A stretch of DNA of 64,000 nucleotides from a virus. Taxonomy: Duplodnaviria; Caudoviricetes. The translations under genes and the position numbers were made by a program. The stretch covers positions 33,903 to 97,902 of IMG/VR virus record IMGVR_UViG_3300046490_000039. One strand, given 5' to 3'. Under the pieces are notes generated by a model. The model was not told where the DNA came from, ran no database searches, and saw only the letters and a program-made list of their open reading frames with translations. Positions 37,832-45,965 of the stretch are shown piece by piece (the stretch's first letter is position 1; every line of letters begins with the position of its first letter).

Positions 37832-39553
37832 TCAGGGAGCCGTGGGACCAGTCGGGCCAGCGCAGGTGCGGAGGGCCGAGGCGTCGGGAGCGCCAGCGCC
37901 GTTCGGGGTGATGTCCGAGACCACTGCGAGCGACTCGACGGCACCGACCTGAGCGACGGCCGAGAACTCTTCCATCCAGATCTGGTAGTCGTTCTGGCTG
38001 TTGAGGGTCGAGTCACGGACCAGGCCGAGGTCGAGCACGCCGTTGTCCAGGAAGATCCACTGACCTTCGGGGAACAGGAACCAGCGCACCTGGCACGGGT
38101 AGGTGTTCAGCACGCCACCGGCCACCGGGCCAGTGAGCTGTGCGTCCTGGGCGATGGTGTCCTGGGTCCAGATCGGGCTGACGCCACGGAGACGCAGCCA
38201 GTCTTCGATCTGGGCATCCGAGATGCTGTAGCGGTTGAGGCCGTCACCGGGGTGCTGGGCAGCGATGTCGTTCTTGAGGACCGACTTCAGCCAGAACGGA
38301 GCGACGAAGCGCAGGTTGACCGTACCGGCGATACGGTAGCGGGCACGGAAGCTGTCCACTGCGAAGCCGATCTGCTCCAGGGTGGAGAAGGCGGCACCGT
38401 AGGTCTGGTTGCCGTGCATGTGGGTCGAACCGGCGTTGATGGCCGACAGAAGCTCCTGCTCCTGGTAGCGAGCGAACTCGACTCGGCTGAGCTTCAGCCA
38501 GGCCTCGACCTGCTCGGGGTAGGTACGGCTGCCCATGTTGCCGAAGGTCAGACAGTTTGACACTGCCTGCACGACGGCGGTAGACTCCGTGCCACACGTG
38601 ACGTGGAGGCAGGGCTTCGGGGCGGTCGAGCCAGCGGGCGACTGATTCGTGTAGCCAGCCGCATCCTGAGCGGCCGTGGTCCGACGAGTCGAGCCACTGA
38701 GATCGCTCAGCTTGGGCGGGGTGACGAAGCGGATACCGCCACGGTCAGCCTTGAAGGACGGGAGGCCGTCACGCAGCGGACGTACGACATCGCCGTAGGT
38801 CTGGAGGTTGTACCAGGGCGTCAGGGGGGCGCAGAGACCACCCGAAGCGATGATCGCCTGGGTGCTCGTGACCGACTCGACACGGGAGGTGTTGACCACC
38901 ACGTCGTCACCGAGGATGCGATCCTCGGGGTACTCGGCCTCGATCGAGGCGACGAGGAAACGAGCGCCGCTCGTGACATCGGCCGCACGGGTGTCGGGGT
39001 GACGGTTGATGAGCGCCTTGGCGACATCGTTCCAGCCGGGAACTTCCTGGCCCGAACGGAAGCCACGCACGTCGGCGGCGATCTTGGCGAGGGGCTTCGA
39101 TGCGGAAGCGGTTACGGCGGGCTTGTCGCCCTGGAGACCGACCGGCGAGATGACGACCTCGGGCTGAACTTCAGCGGCGGCCTCTTCCTTCTCGGCGGCG
39201 TCTTCGGCGTCGGCTTCTGCGGCCTGCTTGGCCGGATCGCCCTTCTCGCCCTTCTTGAAGGGAACGAACTTGCCAGCGAAGGTCTCGCCCTGCACGTCCC
39301 CGATGAAGGCGTCGTCGGCAGCCAGCTCGACACGCTTGGCCATCTCGGCCCTGACTTCAGTCACGACCTCCTTGATGGCTGCGAGTTCCGCAACGTCGTC
39401 CGAGCTTGCGGCCGAGGCACGCTTCTCACGGTATTCAGCAACCAGGAGCGACTCAAACTTGACGATCTCGTCGTTGTCCAGAGCGCCTAGGTCGATCTCA
39501 AATTGCTCATCGCCTTCGGCGGTGGCGTCCAGGTCCTTGTCTTCCGTAGTCAT
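37832..39553 (-). CDS. major capsid (hexamer) protein with N-terminal scaffold-like region
   Basis: IASGGLCAP...RGGIRF...KPC...CLTFGN...YPE...LDLGLVRDSTLNSQNDY. Confidence 0.9.
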   Translation of the reverse strand: MTTEDKDLDATAEGDEQFEIDLGALDNDEIVKFESLLVAEYREKRASAASSDDVAELAAIKEVVTEVRAEMAKRVELAADDAFIGDVQGETFAGKFVPFKKGEKGDPAKQAAEADAEDAAEKEEAAAEVQPEVVISPVGLQGDKPAVTASASKPLAKIAADVRGFRSGQEVPGWNDVAKALINRHPDTRAADVTSGARFLVASIEAEYPEDRILGDDVVVNTSRVESVTSTQAIIASGGLCAPLTPWYNLQTYGDVVRPLRDGLPSFKADRGGIRFVTPPKLSDLSGSTRRTTAAQDAAGYTNQSPAGSTAPKPCLHVTCGTESTAVVQAVSNCLTFGNMGSRTYPEQVEAWLKLSRVEFARYQEQELLSAINAGSTHMHGNQTYGAAFSTLEQIGFAVDSFRARYRIAGTVNLRFVAPFWLKSVLKNDIAAQHPGDGLNRYSISDAQIEDWLRLRGVSPIWTQDTIAQDAQLTGPVAGGVLNTYPCQVRWFLFPEGQWIFLDNGVLDLGLVRDSTLNSQNDYQIWMEEFSAVAQVGAVESLAVVSDITPNGAGAPDASALRTCAGPTGPTAP

Positions 39554-39583: not shown

Positions 39584-40051
39584 CTATGACACAATCGAAC
39601 TTCTACGGTGGTACCAGGATCTGGCATTGTCCTTAGCGCACTGACGACAGCGACGAGCAACTGATTGATGGTTATTGGGTGGAGGAACATACAGGTTAGT
39701 TCCAGAATACGGGTGCCCTTGCGGGCAGTGCGTCTTGATGGCGTTGAGCTGCCACGCCATTCCCTCCACATTCTCCGTGACGTTGACACGCTGCGTCACG
39801 GTCCTCAAGTGATTGATGTTGCAGCAGGATCGGTTGCGGCAGGTGTGATCAACTACGAGGTCCTTCGGGATGATGCCATGATGGTGCTCGTACACGAGAC
39901 GGTGGGCGGAGTGCTGAACGCCATCGACTTTCACCTGGATATAGCCTTTACCGTTAGGCACCTTTGGCGAAACTACGCACCCGGTAACGATGTGCGGCGG
40001 CCAGCTCTCCAGCTACTCAACAGCCCCCATTCCATGCGGTATCCTGACCAT
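39584..40051 (-). pseudogene. HNH endonuclease with an in-frame TAG at codon 13 (intact ORF 39584-39961)
   Basis: AHRLVY...DHTCRNRSCCNINHL...KTHCPQGH; leaderless ATG at 40051; TAG at 40015-40013. Confidence 0.65.
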
Positions 40052-40084: not shown

Positions 40085-42256
40085 TCAGATCGGTGAGAGA
40101 ACGTCCAGGTCCATGAGCGACAACTGAATCTCGTACGCCATCGGCGTCGGGTCGTTGTCTTCCTTGCCCGAACCCTCGGGAAGGGTGGGCTTGCCAAGCG
40201 TGCGGTCGAGGAGGTTCTGCTCGTCGAGCGAGACACCCTTCAGGTATGCAGCGTACGACTGGACCTGCATCGAGATGCGGCTGCCCATCTGCGTCGTCTG
40301 ATTGGCGAGATCGTAGATGTCGCTGAACTTCTCATTGATTCCATTGAGGAAGTTCTGATCGAGATCTGTGGTCCATTCGATCGGACGGCCGTCACGGAAG
40401 GCAAAGCTATCGGCGGTCTTCTCGACCTTCTTCTTGGCCTTCTTGGCCTCTTCGATGCAGTCGGCGCAGTCGCCCACGCAGTCAGCGCAGGCCTCTTCGG
40501 TGTCGTCGCATCCGCAATCCTCTTCGACGGCGGAAGCGTTCACGGCCTCGGGCAGATCAGTGTCGCCCTCTTCCTTGTCCATGCTCTCGGCCCCCTCGAC
40601 CACGGACGCACGGAGCTGCCACGCCCACTTCTGGAACGTGTCGATTCGGTCGGCTACGAAGTTGGCCACACCCTGCTCGTCCGCACCGTTGGCGATGGCG
40701 AACGTCGCCTTGAGCGAACCGATCAGCTCCTCCAGCTTGGAGAGCAGAGCGGTGCCCATCGACTCGGGGGTCTCGCCGGGAATCGACTCGGTGATGGTGC
40801 GGAGCGCCATGAATTCATCGAGCGTGTACGGGGCCTCACCCTGAAGCTTGCGGATGTTCTCGGCGGTCGGGTCAATCGACTCGTAGAGATCGTCGTAGAT
40901 CTTGTTGAACAGCTCGTGGTAGGGCACGAAGTCGTCACCCTCCACGTTCCAGTGGAACCCGTGAGCCTGGTGGTACACCGTCACCGTGTTCGACAGTAGG
41001 ACCTTCAGTTGGTCGATCAGCTCTTGGGATGTTGCGGCTTCCACACTGGCTACAATACCAGCGGCAACGAGCGCCGTCTGAGCGCCAGCTACGATCGTGG
41101 AAGCGGCACGGGGTACGGGGAAGCCGGGGGTGTTGACGGCCAGTAGGCCGACCATCTCCAGCGAACCGTCGATGGCACGCCAGTCGCCGGACACGCCAGC
41201 GGCTCGGAGGTTGGCCACCTGTGCGTCGGTGGCGTCGGGAGCGATGACCCCAGCGAACCAGATACCGTGCTCGTCCTCTCCGGCCTTGACGTAGGCGGCA
41301 GCGAACCCGGTGTGGTCATAGTGTTCCTTGGCGGGCTGAGCGCCCATCTCCAGAGAGGCGTGTCCCGTGTTGGCGGTGATGCGGCCAACCGGCACGTGTG
41401 CACCCTCAGCGGTCAGCACCTCGCCCACGTTGAAGTAGGCGTAGTTCTTGTTGGATCGGGGCGGGGTGACGCAGCGGTCCTTGTAGCCGACGTGGCACGT
41501 ACCGAAGACGGCGGCGTGCCCGAAGACTCGCCCGTCGTCAGTGATCGTGAGCGGGGTGGGCCGGGCCAGGTTCGGATTCTTGAAGGCGGTGTCCGGTGGT
41601 GCCCAGCCTCGCTCGGCTGCGGCCGTGAGCGCCTTCTTGTCGTTGGCCTTCTCTTCGGCGTCCTCTTCGGCGGGGGTCTCGTTCGCCTCCTCGGCGGGGG
41701 TCTCGTCCTCATCGTTGACCTCGGTCACCTTCCCGGCAGCGAACTGCGAGTCCGTACCATCGACGGCGATCTTCGTGTCATCGAACGACGAGTGGAGCAA
41801 CGCCGTCACTCCTAGAATAGTTCCCCTCGTGAACAGGCGCTTCACGCCCTCTGGCACTTCACTCTCCGCAAACTCGGAAGCGATCACTCCACCGACATCC
41901 GCCGATACATGGGAGATGACCCCCTCCCGGATCAACTTACGAGCTTCCTGACCCTCTTCATCTGAGCTGAAGTATCCTCGCCCGTAGACGTTTCCCCCGT
42001 CCTTCCAGATGGAGCAGATTGCGCCTACAGCGCTGGCGGTCTTGTGCTGACCCTCTGCGGTATTCGTCCGATTCAGGGTCAGGGGAATGGGCAGCTCACG
42101 CCAGCTAATTGATCCCTCAGCAAACATACGACCGTCTACGGTCGGATGATGGCTTTCTCCAAAGGATTCTTGGGCGATGAGCATCACGAAACTGCCCGCT
42201 GAGGCCTCAGGTTCGTACACGAAAGTGGGGGTCTCTTCCCCAACGATATCGGACAT
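40085..42256 (-). CDS. capsid maturation protease fused to a Dps/ferritin domain
   Basis: DGR...LPIPL...VG...SADV; GRVFGHAA...CHVG...GEDEHGIWFAG...SGDWR...VNTPGFP; then HWNVEG...H...D..AE. Confidence 0.85.
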   Translation of the reverse strand: MSDIVGEETPTFVYEPEASAGSFVMLIAQESFGESHHPTVDGRMFAEGSISWRELPIPLTLNRTNTAEGQHKTASAVGAICSIWKDGGNVYGRGYFSSDEEGQEARKLIREGVISHVSADVGGVIASEFAESEVPEGVKRLFTRGTILGVTALLHSSFDDTKIAVDGTDSQFAAGKVTEVNDEDETPAEEANETPAEEDAEEKANDKKALTAAAERGWAPPDTAFKNPNLARPTPLTITDDGRVFGHAAVFGTCHVGYKDRCVTPPRSNKNYAYFNVGEVLTAEGAHVPVGRITANTGHASLEMGAQPAKEHYDHTGFAAAYVKAGEDEHGIWFAGVIAPDATDAQVANLRAAGVSGDWRAIDGSLEMVGLLAVNTPGFPVPRAASTIVAGAQTALVAAGIVASVEAATSQELIDQLKVLLSNTVTVYHQAHGFHWNVEGDDFVPYHELFNKIYDDLYESIDPTAENIRKLQGEAPYTLDEFMALRTITESIPGETPESMGTALLSKLEELIGSLKATFAIANGADEQGVANFVADRIDTFQKWAWQLRASVVEGAESMDKEEGDTDLPEAVNASAVEEDCGCDDTEEACADCVGDCADCIEEAKKAKKKVEKTADSFAFRDGRPIEWTTDLDQNFLNGINEKFSDIYDLANQTTQMGSRISMQVQSYAAYLKGVSLDEQNLLDRTLGKPTLPEGSGKEDNDPTPMAYEIQLSLMDLDVLSPI

Positions 42257-42323: not shown

Positions 42324-42923
42324 ATGAGGGTGTGCACGATGTGTTATACGAACACAACCGAAACTCTACACGGCGTTGCCCGCTGCCTCGATTGCCGTGA
42401 GCGTCAACGGATGAAGGACCGGACTCAAGGCAAACGAGATCGGCGTGCCAGAGCGCCCTTGACGGCGCAGACCTGCTCGTGTGGTAACACCTTCAGGGGG
42501 AGGCCCGGTGAAATAACGGAGTGCTCGGCATGCCGCCACAGGCGGTATGGAAAGAATCCTTGTCCCGTATGTAACACGCCAAAGCTGAAGCGCTCCGACC
42601 GATGCCGGTCATGCTCCAACCAGAGGAAACGTGACGAATCCAAGGGCCGAGCCTCCCTAGTAACCAAGGCGGGATATCGGCTCACTTGGTCTCCCTCTTC
42701 GTCCTGTACCACCAGATCCGGTTACGCCTTTGAGCACCGAGTAGTCATGGAGACAGCACTCGGTCGCCCGCTTCTCTCGCATGAGAACGTACACCACATC
42801 AACGGAATTCGGGATGACAACCGCATCGAGAACCTGGAGCTATGGTCAAAGAGCCAGCCGTCAGGACAGAGAGTTGCGGACAAGATTGCGTGGTGCCAGG
42901 AATTTCTGGCCCTCTACCGGTAG
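42324..42923 (+). CDS. HNH homing endonuclease with Zn ribbons
   Basis: EHRVVM...[21 protein letters not shown]. Confidence 0.9.
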   Translation: MRVCTMCYTNTTETLHGVARCLDCRERQRMKDRTQGKRDRRARAPLTAQTCSCGNTFRGRPGEITECSACRHRRYGKNPCPVCNTPKLKRSDRCRSCSNQRKRDESKGRASLVTKAGYRLTWSPSSSCTTRSGYAFEHRVVMETALGRPLLSHENVHHINGIRDDNRIENLELWSKSQPSGQRVADKIAWCQEFLALYR

Positions 42924-42925
42924 GG

Positions 42926-44332
42926 CTACGGCTCACGGACGATTACGGCCGGGAGCGGTTCCCCCTTGGCCAGGGCGGCAGCGGCTCGGTGGTGACCGGA
43001 CAGGATGATGTGCCGACCGGCCTTGTCCACGTACACGATCGGGAAAGCGTTGGTCGGTGAGCTGTGATCGGCAGAGGTTCGTCCGGTGCGCCGATAGTTG
43101 TCGCCCATGTAGTAGTCCATGTGGGTACGCACAAGGTTCGGCTGTGTGGCGTGGAGCAATCGAGGGTCGACGGACTGAATCCGTGGGTGCTCTAGCGCTC
43201 TCCGGATCAGCTCACGGTCAATCGGCTTCTGGTTCTTGGATCGTGGTGCTCGGGGCCACGGGGTCGTGGTGGTCGTCTGGCTGTGCCCGAATACACCCTC
43301 GGTGCCCTTCCCCCACGAGCGCTCGATGGACTGCACCGAGAGGGGCGTCAGGGTTGCCTTGTGCGCCGACCACGCTGCGTCAGCGTGCCCGCCGCTGATC
43401 CACCGGCCGTTCTTATCCCTAGGCTCGTCACGCCGGTAGAACTCGGCCATGAGCAGCGCTACCATGTCCTCGCTTGTAGCCGAGAGGTCCTCGGCGTCCG
43501 TGCTCAGCATCTCGACCGGTGACTCGACCACTGGACTTGACGCCGAGGAGGTGATGGTGATAGGCTCTGGCGCTCCGAAGTTCGGGATGTAGGGGACGAC
43601 CACGCAGGCGCATCCCCAGTGATCTCCCGGTCTGTAGTAGTCACTACGAATCCAACGGTCCTGAGGGGAGATCTGGAGCGCACGGTCATGCCAGTCGGTG
43701 AACACGAGTCCGTCCATCTGGAGGTGCCCGTTGAAGGTACGCCGAACGGTCTCGCCGTAGAGCCACATCTTCTGGTCCGTGGTGATGTTGTTGGCGGAGA
43801 GCACGCTGTGGAGCGTCTGACCGCCCGTCAGGCCCGTGGCGAGGGGTACCTCTGGCGGAGCGCCACCACCGAGCACGCCCAGGATCGGACGCACGTCACC
43901 GAACTGCACCTCGTAGGCGACAGGCGGCTTCAGTCCTGTACCGGGCACGTAGTCGTTGGCAAAGAAGAACTCACCGAAGGTCGGGGTAGTGCCCGCCTGC
44001 TTGCCGATGAGCGCCTTGAACATCTCGACGAACGTGTTGCGGGAGCGCTCGATCGAGTCCTTGACAATCGGGAAATACTGTGATAGGGGCAGCACGTCGA
44101 GACCGAACCCGTCCATGAGAGCGTTCACGTCTTCCCAGAGACTCATGGCCAGCGCCATGTACTCGGCCTCCATCGAGTCCGTAATGAAGCTCGCCGGATC
44201 GAACGCCGATGCGGTGACAGCGAGCGACGAGAGGTGGGACTGCATCAGGTCACGGAGCGATGTCATCGCTTTCGACTCGATGCGAGACAGCTCGTACTCA
44301 GTTGGGTCTACGGTCTTGATGTCCAGGGCCAT
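42926..44332 (-). CDS. MuF-like minor head protein with C-terminal ParB/Srx-like domain
   Basis: W.YG...R.F..H..MDG...PGDHWGCAC; EPRDKNGRW; ATQP...ILSGHHRAAA. Confidence 0.75.
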   Translation of the reverse strand: MALDIKTVDPTEYELSRIESKAMTSLRDLMQSHLSSLAVTASAFDPASFITDSMEAEYMALAMSLWEDVNALMDGFGLDVLPLSQYFPIVKDSIERSRNTFVEMFKALIGKQAGTTPTFGEFFFANDYVPGTGLKPPVAYEVQFGDVRPILGVLGGGAPPEVPLATGLTGGQTLHSVLSANNITTDQKMWLYGETVRRTFNGHLQMDGLVFTDWHDRALQISPQDRWIRSDYYRPGDHWGCACVVVPYIPNFGAPEPITITSSASSPVVESPVEMLSTDAEDLSATSEDMVALLMAEFYRRDEPRDKNGRWISGGHADAAWSAHKATLTPLSVQSIERSWGKGTEGVFGHSQTTTTTPWPRAPRSKNQKPIDRELIRRALEHPRIQSVDPRLLHATQPNLVRTHMDYYMGDNYRRTGRTSADHSSPTNAFPIVYVDKAGRHIILSGHHRAAAALAKGEPLPAVIVREP

Positions 44333-44342
44333 TAGGTCTAGC

Positions 44343-45965
44343 CTACTTGGTCTTGGAGTCTTGCGGCTTCCCTGGCTGCGCTCGACGCTGCGTGGGCAGG
44401 ACCGGTGGTGCGGCCTTCGGCCCTTGAGGGGCCTGGCCACGAGGGCCGTTCACGGTAGCGGGACCGGGCGGCCTTCCGGGCTTCGCCTGTCCGGCCTCGG
44501 CAGAGAGCTTGGCCTCTTCGGCGGGGTCCTTCAACGGGGCGGAGCCGCCCAGCTTGCCGGGGTCGTTGGCGGGCGGCTCGCCCGAGATGGCCATCTTGGG
44601 GTCAGCCACCTTGACGCCGACACGCTTGGCGTATTCCTTGTCGCTCGGGGCGTCGTCGTCAGAGTAGCCGTTCTCACGACGGAGAGCGGCGTCCGAGAGC
44701 ACCAGGCGATCGTGAAGGCCCAGGGCCTTGTCGGCCTTGTCGGGCAGGACGACCAGCTCGCTAGCGTCATACCAGACAATGATGTCGTCCGGGCTGTCAA
44801 CGCCAGCTTCCTTGAGCGCAGCCTGCACCTGCTCGGGGGTCATCCGGTCGATGGCCTGACGTAGGTACGTGCGGGTCAGGGCGTCAGCGATAAGCTGGAT
44901 GGCGGGCTTGATGTGGGCCTCGTAGGTGTCTTCCTTGATGGCCCAGGCGGTCCAGTGTGTGGCCTCGCCCACGCCGAGCATGATCTCTTTCGGGATCTCC
45001 AGCGTGTGGGCGACCTGCTCGATGGCCGTCTGGATCGAGGCGTTAGAGGCGGCCGTGTCGAACGAGCGGGCCATCTCCTCGTACTTGATCTTGTTGACGA
45101 CATCAGCCGGACCAATGAGCACGAGCGGCACAACAGCGGACGGATGGTTCTCGTCCTGGAGCGGTGCCATCATCGACTCAGCGAGCGCCTGATAGAGCGG
45201 ATTGCTCTGCATGGCGTCGGGGTTATTGCCCTGATTCTGCCATGCCGGAGGGACCAACTCTTGGGGAAGTGCAAGAATTCCAGACCCAGCCAACCGGCTA
45301 CGAGCGATGGCTCGTTCAGCCTTGTTGAGGGTAACGATCTTCTCCAATAGTTCCATTGCGGGCCGGGTGCTGGAGTCCGCCAGCTCTGAATACTCGGGGT
45401 GTTCCTTCCAGATACGGATCGTGAGCGCACCGTCCGGGAGGTTGGCGGGTGCGGCACCGGGTAGGCGGCGGCGCATGAATCGGCCAGAGGTACCAGCCGT
45501 GATCAACTCGGAGATCGACACGGCGTCCCACGACTGTACGACCTCACCGGTCGGCATGCTCTCGGCAGCGCCGACGAGCCAGACCTCACCGCACAGGAAG
45601 ACGTTGCGACCGACCTGACGGAGCAAGCCACTCTGTCCGCCACGGGGTGAGCGGATGTTCTTGACGGCATCCGAGAACGCACCCTTCTCGATGACCTCGG
45701 GAGGTGTGTGCGGCGCATCGGACGGTGGGCGACGGGCGGCGACCAGGCGCATCTTGGAGAGCGCCGAGCCGACGTAGTTCGTGGCGTACCAGAGGTGCCC
45801 TTCTGCGTCGTAGAGGCGGAAGGCCTTGTGCTGCCACTGCTGGCGCTGCAAGGCGAGCTGGGCTGCGTCAGAGTACGTGGAGACCCTGTACGTGGCACCA
45901 GAGCCAGCCACAGACGACAGGATCATCGGAGGCTGCGGAGCGGGCTTCTTAGAGAACAGACCCAT
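44343..45965 (-). CDS. portal protein
   Basis: WQ..A..YD..G, GE.WL, RIW..HP...ADS, SRLAGSGIL..PQE, HW.AW, VWYDAS.L. Confidence 0.88.
   Translation of the reverse strand: MGLFSKKPAPQPPMILSSVAGSGATYRVSTYSDAAQLALQRQQWQHKAFRLYDAEGHLWYATNYVGSALSKMRLVAARRPPSDAPHTPPEVIEKGAFSDAVKNIRSPRGGQSGLLRQVGRNVFLCGEVWLVGAAESMPTGEVVQSWDAVSISELITAGTSGRFMRRRLPGAAPANLPDGALTIRIWKEHPEYSELADSSTRPAMELLEKIVTLNKAERAIARSRLAGSGILALPQELVPPAWQNQGNNPDAMQSNPLYQALAESMMAPLQDENHPSAVVPLVLIGPADVVNKIKYEEMARSFDTAASNASIQTAIEQVAHTLEIPKEIMLGVGEATHWTAWAIKEDTYEAHIKPAIQLIADALTRTYLRQAIDRMTPEQVQAALKEAGVDSPDDIIVWYDASELVVLPDKADKALGLHDRLVLSDAALRRENGYSDDDAPSDKEYAKRVGVKVADPKMAISGEPPANDPGKLGGSAPLKDPAEEAKLSAEAGQAKPGRPPGPATVNGPRGQAPQGPKAAPPVLPTQRRAQPGKPQDSKTK

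Follow-up and report, generated by a model that had tools for sequence, protein, structure and literature searches.

A stretch of viral DNA, 64,000 nucleotides long and referred to here as the window, encodes a head-maturation polyprotein that carries a complete Dps (mini-ferritin) domain with an intact ferroxidase center. The window covers bases 33903-97902 of a 97.9-kb IMG/VR viral contig, a metagenome assembly with an estimated completeness of 88%, and comes from an uncultured actinophage-like virus. The polyprotein gene lies on the minus strand at 40085..42256 and forms one continuous open reading frame (ORF) of 723 amino acids (aa), uninterrupted by stops, that runs through protease, middle domain, Dps, linker, C module and tail. 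The Dps domain has the fold and the ligands of its cellular counterparts, its ligands are strictly conserved, it is present or absent as a cassette among close homologs, and it recurs in unrelated head proteases. A preliminary description of the window had assigned the domain to a capsid maturation protease; it does belong to a head-maturation polyprotein, encoded between the portal/MuF genes and the major capsid gene.

The Dps domain spans aa 410-557 (40586..41029, minus strand), as placed by Pfam, PHROG and PDB sequence searches, AlphaFold2 and Foldseek. Pfam Ferritin (PF00210) matched aa 414-550 (window positions 40607-41017) with an E value of 1.5e-15 and 57.8 bits against a cut-off of 24.5, and PHROG 3636, a Dps-type 'DNA binding protein' family, matched aa 409-551. 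The best PDB relatives by sequence were all Dps proteins: B. anthracis Dlp-1 (1JI5, E 9e-18), B. brevis Dps and P. aeruginosa Dps (8FF9). AlphaFold2 prediction of aa 405-565 as a monomer, with an input alignment of 50 relatives, yielded a mean pLDDT of 96.1 and a pTM of 0.90. The 161-aa model is a four-helix bundle with the short BC helix typical of Dps, its helices falling at residues 6-33, 39-66, 75-81, 93-120 and 124-159. Foldseek comparison with the PDB again returned Dps proteins for all top matches (TM 0.8-0.93, rmsd 1.2-3.2 Å).

The ferroxidase ligands are all in place: H435 and the adjacent W436 (40949-40954), H447 (40916-40918), twelve residues after H435, and D462 (40871-40873) and E466 (40859-40861), which form a D-x3-E motif at 40859-40873. 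The preliminary description had read this HW, second H and D-x-x-x-E pattern as a complete Dps within the protease ORF, and the family matches, the ligand positions and the confidently predicted four-helix fold bear it out. The two histidines, the aspartate and the glutamate do not vary across 93 long and 50 short relatives (alignments A1, A2 and A3), while the neighboring tryptophan is invariant in A1 and A3 and nearly so in A2. Such invariance in both long and short relatives indicates that the chemistry is under selection, beyond the fold alone. Judged from these alignments, iron oxidation and sequestration would be a conserved feature of the domain. In known Dps proteins each of two subunits contributes half of the ferroxidase site; conservation of all four intersubunit ligands thus argues that the domain still pairs.

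DNA protection, which the preliminary description had offered as a role, fares less well insofar as it would act through direct DNA binding. The Dps core has a pI of 4.5 and the flanking linkers have pI values of 4.0-4.2. There is no Lys/Arg-rich tail at the Dps domain, and the sole basic run, KKAKKKVEK (aa 604-612), lies ~50 residues downstream. With an acidic domain, acidic linkers and no basic tail at the domain, it is unlikely to bind DNA in the manner of E. coli Dps. A nested internal start at GTG405 was also considered and rejected: no Shine-Dalgarno sequence lies upstream of it, and the 319-aa protein that seemed to support it (P0029) is truncated by a contig end 38 nt upstream.

The N-terminal part of the polyprotein is a head-maturation protease. 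In profile searches, PHROG head-maturation protease families (859/18402/21470) cover aa 33-423 at E values of 3e-90 to 2e-54. In 873 phage records, nearly all from actinophages (Mycobacterium, Gordonia, Microbacterium, Arthrobacter), homologs of the N-terminal 412 aa bear the annotation capsid maturation protease, at identities of no more than 45%. Freshwater or soil Actinomycetota are the probable hosts of the clade. The N-terminal lobe (aa 30-165; 41762..42169, minus strand) has a probable HK97/S78-type serine protease fold and, by analogy, is probably the catalytic lobe. Within it, H71 (42044-42046) and S118 (41903-41905) are invariant in alignments A4 and A6; with a conserved His/Ser spacing of about 47-50 residues as the criterion, they would form the catalytic dyad by the same analogy. 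Pfam S77 remained below its cut-off for the window protein (14.4 bits against 27), S78 matches were weak and occurred in the relatives P0009 and P0013, and the polyprotein profile found Dps only, and no protease structure, among PDB sequences.

An acidic, disordered linker (aa 166-215; 41612..41761, minus strand; pI 4.05, pLDDT below 50 over aa 167-213) ends in the junction motif LTAAA (41615-41629) and leads into a beta-rich middle domain (aa 216-395; 41072..41611, minus strand). The middle domain matches PHROG 18402 and 29860, has invariant columns in A4 and A6, and is 76-86% identical among the nearest homologs. It holds the SGDWR and NTPGFP motifs that the preliminary description had taken for the protease; this region is instead the conserved middle domain, and the catalytic lobe is probably aa 30-165. 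The protease body ends at LVAAG (aa 396-400; 41057..41071, minus strand), a candidate cleavage site and the upstream edge of the slot that holds Dps. LVAAG is invariant in A4 and conserved in A6, where two distant members have LIASG and one has LIAAG.

Downstream of Dps follows an acidic, Cys-rich linker (aa 558-612; 40421..40585, minus strand) with VNASA (40529-40543), then DCGC (40508-40519) as the start of a six-cysteine pattern (DCGC..C..C...C..C), and then KKAKKK. The linker is disordered in the full-length AlphaFold2 model, and its Cys cluster is a possible metal site. DCGCGC/EDCGC-type motifs are conserved in protease homologs both with and without Dps. Separately, at least two CxC/CxxC motifs lie within 100 aa of Dps in 19 of 117 long Dps-carrying proteins. 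A helical, scaffold-like C module (aa 613-690; 40187..40420, minus strand) comes next, with helices at aa 628-656 and 663-687 and the signature F-x-F-x-x-G-x-P-x-x-W-T-T-D-L-D. The chain closes with a tail (aa 691-723; 40088..40186, minus strand) that ends in LSLMDLDVLSPI and is a candidate capsid-binding (targeting) peptide; a helix is predicted at aa 705-715, at low confidence. In the full-length model, which served for domain and linker boundaries only, Dps is the sole confident block, with disorder on either side of it (aa 375-408 and 554-632).

With the middle domain as query we retrieved proteins of comparable length, 18 of which were aligned (A6). Five homologs of 513-546 aa (P0178, P0181, P0183, P0184 and P0186), whose middle domains are 76-81% identical, are co-linear with the window protein and lack exactly the ~150-aa Dps block. 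In these Dps-less proteins LVAAGxV is followed at once by the DCGC linker, and then by C module and tail. Two further homologs (P0044 and P0272, 573-582 aa) have Dps and lack the C module, and one of 444 aa (P0187) has neither; the C module is present in P0002, P0175 and P0178. Regardless of which modules intervene, the LLDLD-type C-terminal end is kept in all close-clade architectures. Clean presence or absence in co-linear homologs shows Dps to be an optional cassette with a fixed slot; the tail is the constant element. The preliminary description had pointed to swappable domains in homologous proteases, and these do have a slot at exactly the Dps position.

A cultured freshwater actinophage, Actinomycetia phage DSL-LC01, offers a view of the chain in separate pieces. 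Here the C-terminal module of the sister-clade polyproteins is a 183-aa gene of its own after the protease, and its product ends in a ...LLRLLT tail, as P0009 does. This arrangement favors a scaffold-like function for the segment that follows the slot. In the head module of the same phage, a gene annotated as high-potential iron-sulfur protein (L008:305-1039) lies shortly before the protease genes. The 851-aa protease of this phage (L008:2865-5420) ends in a C..C....C....C motif that is also found in P0057, another metal-related module in head polyproteins.

The fusion is not an assembly product. A metagenome contig that is ~88% complete might harbor a chimeric join, an overlooked stop or frameshift, or a recently acquired insert in decay. 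Against this, a ~99% identical locus from a different JGI sample (L091) contains the LVAAGIVAS-Dps junction, the junction of Dps with the C-terminal part, and the capsid gene. The same architecture is found in other samples in P0002 (733 aa), P0175 (729 aa, on a 97.8-kb contig), P0176, P0177, P0031, P0179 and P0185, whose middle domains are 76-86% identical to that of the window protein; overall, identities range from 57 to 86% in the several other samples with this architecture. The reading frame has no stops, the ligands are conserved, and the GC fraction of the Dps stretch (0.59-0.65) is similar to that of its flanks. Independent contigs spanning both junctions exclude the misassembly that the preliminary description had flagged. 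An artifact of any of these kinds is hardly credible, and is refuted as far as sequence data allow.

Dps domains are fused to head proteins well beyond this clade. With the Dps domain as query, a full HMMER scan across 1.84 billion cluster representatives returned 3785 matches, 86 of them at E 1e-30 or better. Among the best 150 matches, 93 reach 340 aa or more, and the place of Dps within them varies. Head-maturation proteases were the PHROGs that most often co-occurred with Dps in these 93 long relatives (phrog_80, n=33; the window's phrog_859 type, n=10), which also matched major-head families (n=17) and minor head families. Partner domains were assigned by single-pass phmmer, and full-length clustering at 50% identity overstates how many fused architectures there are. 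Within the window's protease type, Dps follows the protease in most members and precedes it in P0003, P0126 and P0051. P0030 (777 aa) carries Dps twice in tandem (aa 40-182 and 198-347) and then 430 aa without a recognized family. All fused genes examined in their genomic context lay in head modules.

Dps is not the only enzyme found in such chains. Some of the long relatives carry polynucleotide kinase, RNA ligase or methyltransferase modules. Polynucleotide-kinase-like, 2'-5' RNA ligase-like, RNA ligase and DNA methyltransferase modules occur in P0039, P0079, P0289 and others, which either carry Dps or are homologous to the window protease. These domain combinations suggest that head-protease chains have a general cargo-carrying role.

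A tree of 232 Dps domains requires at least 29 changes between the fused and short states, 8 of them forced by well-supported branches alone, and at least 2 origins for the window's protease type. Fusion and fission have thus occurred repeatedly. UniProt already holds three proteins of the same kind from uncultured Caudovirales, A0A6J7WPK9 (763 aa), A0A6J5N5R9 (679 aa) and A0A6J5RFH1 (622 aa), with Dps domains 42-47% identical to that of the window (TM 0.84-0.89); their names, 'Prohead protease' or 'DNA-binding protein Dps', are automatic annotation only. In the literature covered in full text, outside which most subscription journals fall, a Dps-head protease fusion is undescribed and these entries are undiscussed.

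We next consider the junctions between modules. In 14 polyproteins of the window's protease type, each chain has 2-10 copies of the motif [LIVM][LIVMT]A[ASC][GAS], against 0.2-0.6 in shuffles. The motif is 4-20-fold over-represented relative to shuffles and lies at module junctions in giant members. The 16 large ORFs of the window contain 7 matches, of which five are in the MuF-like protein (1), the protease (2) and the capsid protein (2); the other two are singles in other ORFs, at or near chance level. Over-representation and placement in head proteins support the cleavage code proposed in the preliminary description and fall short of proving it. LVAAG/IVAS stands immediately upstream of Dps (aa 396-404) and VNASA downstream of it (aa 572-576), and the upstream half of this proposed bracket is conserved and of an over-represented motif class.

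The genes around the polyprotein make up a head-morphogenesis module. On the minus strand the order is portal, MuF-like gene, the 723-aa ORF, an HNH gene, major capsid and collagen-like fiber, with a further HNH gene on the plus strand between the MuF-like gene and the 723-aa ORF. The portal protein (44343..45965) matches PHROG 776 at E 3.7e-93. The 504-aa gene at 42926-44440 is called MuF-like from its position only; no PHROG matched it at or below E 1e-4. The plus-strand HNH endonuclease gene (42324-42923) matches PHROG 20891. The minus-strand HNH gene between protease and capsid genes (39584-39961) is missing from the 99%-identical strain of another sample through a clean ~331-bp indel (L091:1121-1130) and looks like a mobile homing-endonuclease insertion. 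The major capsid protein (573 aa; 37832..39553, minus strand; PHROG 777, E 2e-76) has a long N-terminal extension of ~150 aa. This extension ends in AVTASA (aa 146-151), a junction motif common to the protease and the MuF-like protein, and is likely to be cut there during maturation, where the N-terminal scaffold domain would end.

We propose that the 723-aa protein is a 'beads-on-a-string' polyprotein: a protease lobe and middle domain up to LVAAG, a variable slot, a Cys-rich linker, a scaffold-like module and a conserved tail, with the slot filled by a complete Dps in the window phage. Because the chain has both a protease body and an always-kept tail, the whole protein would be co-assembled in the procapsid, with Dps along as cargo. 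Inside the shell the Dps domains would pair, the ferroxidase site existing only between two subunits, and 12-mers would probably form; both Dps termini point outwards, so flanking chains would be tolerated. Dps would then oxidize Fe(II) with O2 or H2O2 and store the mineral, and the Fenton catalyst would thereby be removed from the compartment destined for the genome. The protease may afterwards cut LVAAG-type junctions and free Dps. Encapsidation, oligomeric state, catalysis, cleavage or release, and benefit to the phage are steps that we infer. In favor of this reading stand the intact and strictly conserved ferroxidase site, the clean cassette indel, the recurrent pairing with head proteases in either order, the head-module position of the fused genes examined, the disordered flanks of Dps, the over-represented junction motif, the separate C-terminal gene of DSL-LC01 and the detection of free-standing phage Dps in virions. 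We hold capsid loading of Dps to be reasonably probable, and extend the same measured confidence to its entry into the prohead as cargo that sequesters iron there.

Several points weigh against capsid loading. The full-length AlphaFold2 model is of low confidence (mean pLDDT 54.6). A 9-nm dodecamer would be too large for capsid pores or tail passage. VNASA, whose resemblance to the putative cleavage motif the preliminary description had pointed out, is not conserved among the closest relatives. This leaves the release of a discrete ~16-20 kDa product a conjecture, and Dps may stay attached to the linker and C module. The fusion occurs in no cultured phage of a 50,697-record collection: megablast of the gene against these records gave no match, tblastn of the C-terminal 173 aa likewise found nothing, so that neither C module nor tail has a cultured relative there, and tblastn of the Dps part retrieved only free-standing Dps genes from Aeromonas, Clostridium and Staphylococcus phages. 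IMG/VR has 259 contigs with a gene for a relative; in 71 of the best 80 loci the protein is 220 aa or shorter, and most close relatives are free-standing and 144-190 aa long. Some free-standing copies lie in the head region (L006, directly after the protease; L053, between terminase and portal), and others lie amid auxiliary genes such as those for thioredoxin, Hsp20 and WhiB (L007, L074). Free-standing relatives, some outside head genes, imply that this Dps clade also works outside a polyprotein.

That distribution speaks for a cytoplasmic helper, a Dps co-expressed with late genes that, whole or cleaved, lowers free iron and peroxide in the infected cell while DNA is replicated and packaged. 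The literature on phage Dps agrees with this view, treating the free-standing genes as auxiliary ones that help through DNA binding or against oxidative stress (PMC8008677, PMC6669764). What such a role leaves unexplained is the repeated fusion to head proteases and scaffolds with a retained C-terminal tail. Prohead proteases, moreover, normally activate only within the assembled shell, so that release would take place there. We regard a purely cytoplasmic role as unlikely. Rather less likely still is that Dps is packed in the head and injected with the DNA into the next host, where it would blunt oxidative or iron-dependent damage or defense at entry. Cell entry by capsid-targeted proteins has well-known examples in T4 IPIII and P1 DarB (PMC9024508), and related polyproteins include enzymes with a plausible use after injection (polynucleotide kinase, 2'-5' RNA ligase-like, methyltransferase). 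A dodecamer is, however, far wider than the portal and tail channel, so an ejected Dps must stay monomeric or unfold, and the conserved intersubunit site implies at least dimers. We give equally little credence to a mainly structural part, in which a Dps 12-mer would cluster protease and scaffold chains and nucleate or size the procapsid core, with iron chemistry secondary. In favor of this, the slot separates the protease body from the scaffold-like part, the two ends of Dps face outward, and chimeras in the PDB show that engineered Dps fusions can fold and assemble. Yet close relatives build heads without the cassette, and the ligands, invariant in ~140 relatives, would be unneeded for a purely structural role.

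Capsid loading has its closest mechanistic analogs, as far as such comparison goes, in encapsulins with ferritin-like cargo and in capsid-targeted internal proteins. In encapsulins (Myxococcus xanthus EncA with EncB/C; IMEF systems), an HK97-fold shell is loaded with a ferritin-superfamily iron oxidase through a C-terminal peptide. The proposed window cargo differs in being Dps rather than EncFtn or Flp, and its shell would also have to contain ~100 kb of DNA. The window locus is not an encapsulin, because portal, capsid, MuF-like and tail-fiber genes flank it. Capsid-targeting systems, of which the C-terminal tail of the HK97 protease is an example, keep a short conserved peptide regardless of cargo, a pattern that the LLDLD-type tail of the window clade fits. 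The capsid-targeting sequence of T4 IPIII and the N-terminal signal of P1 DarB bring cargo into the procapsid, where trimming by the head protease is possible (PMC9024508). Compared with these, the proposed window cargo is an iron enzyme and a covalent part of a protease-scaffold chain.

As for the Dps domain itself, its fold, BC helix, intersubunit ligands and tryptophan are shared with cellular Dps (Dlp-1, 1JI5; P. aeruginosa, 8FF9; Listeria innocua, 1QGH), whereas it is only 20-30% identical to them, is part of a 723-aa viral polyprotein, is acidic and lacks the basic DNA-binding tail. Free-standing phage Dps (SU10 CDS67, Privateer, phage G gp346, Lactobacillus phage Semele, 'Gratiaviridae') are likewise viral, but are encoded by separate genes of ~150-240 aa, mostly outside the head module, and are 17-22% identical to the window domain; those of SU10 and phage G match its model at TM 0.75-0.80 (BFVD). 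As a precedent for virion-associated phage Dps, three free-standing proteins have been detected in purified virions by mass spectrometry: the Dps of Escherichia phage SU10 (CDS67; PMC4281155), a Dps-family protein of Proteus phage Privateer (PMC7881722) and the ferritin-like gp346 of Bacillus phage G (PMC12484599).

A Dps domain within the capsid protease-scaffold chain points to action inside the head, beside the packaged genome, in contrast to the earlier view of a cytoplasmic helper. If this is true, a modular slot and a constant tail would amount to natural enzyme loading of a phage capsid and provide a design rule for cargo delivery. It would also create a functional tie between phage heads and ferritin-loaded encapsulins, which share the capsid fold. 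The idea of virion iron would be directly testable with natural strains that have or lack the cassette, and its presence or absence among proteases that are 76-86% identical supplies ready-made controls. That the capsids of many uncultured tailed-phage lineages are natural Dps-loaded iron compartments, with several mineralized Dps cages per head, is a possibility we put forward tentatively and with some doubt. Were Dps-loaded capsids to prove true, virions would be a hidden iron pool, and these heads a viral counterpart, possibly an evolutionary precursor, of ferritin-loaded encapsulins.

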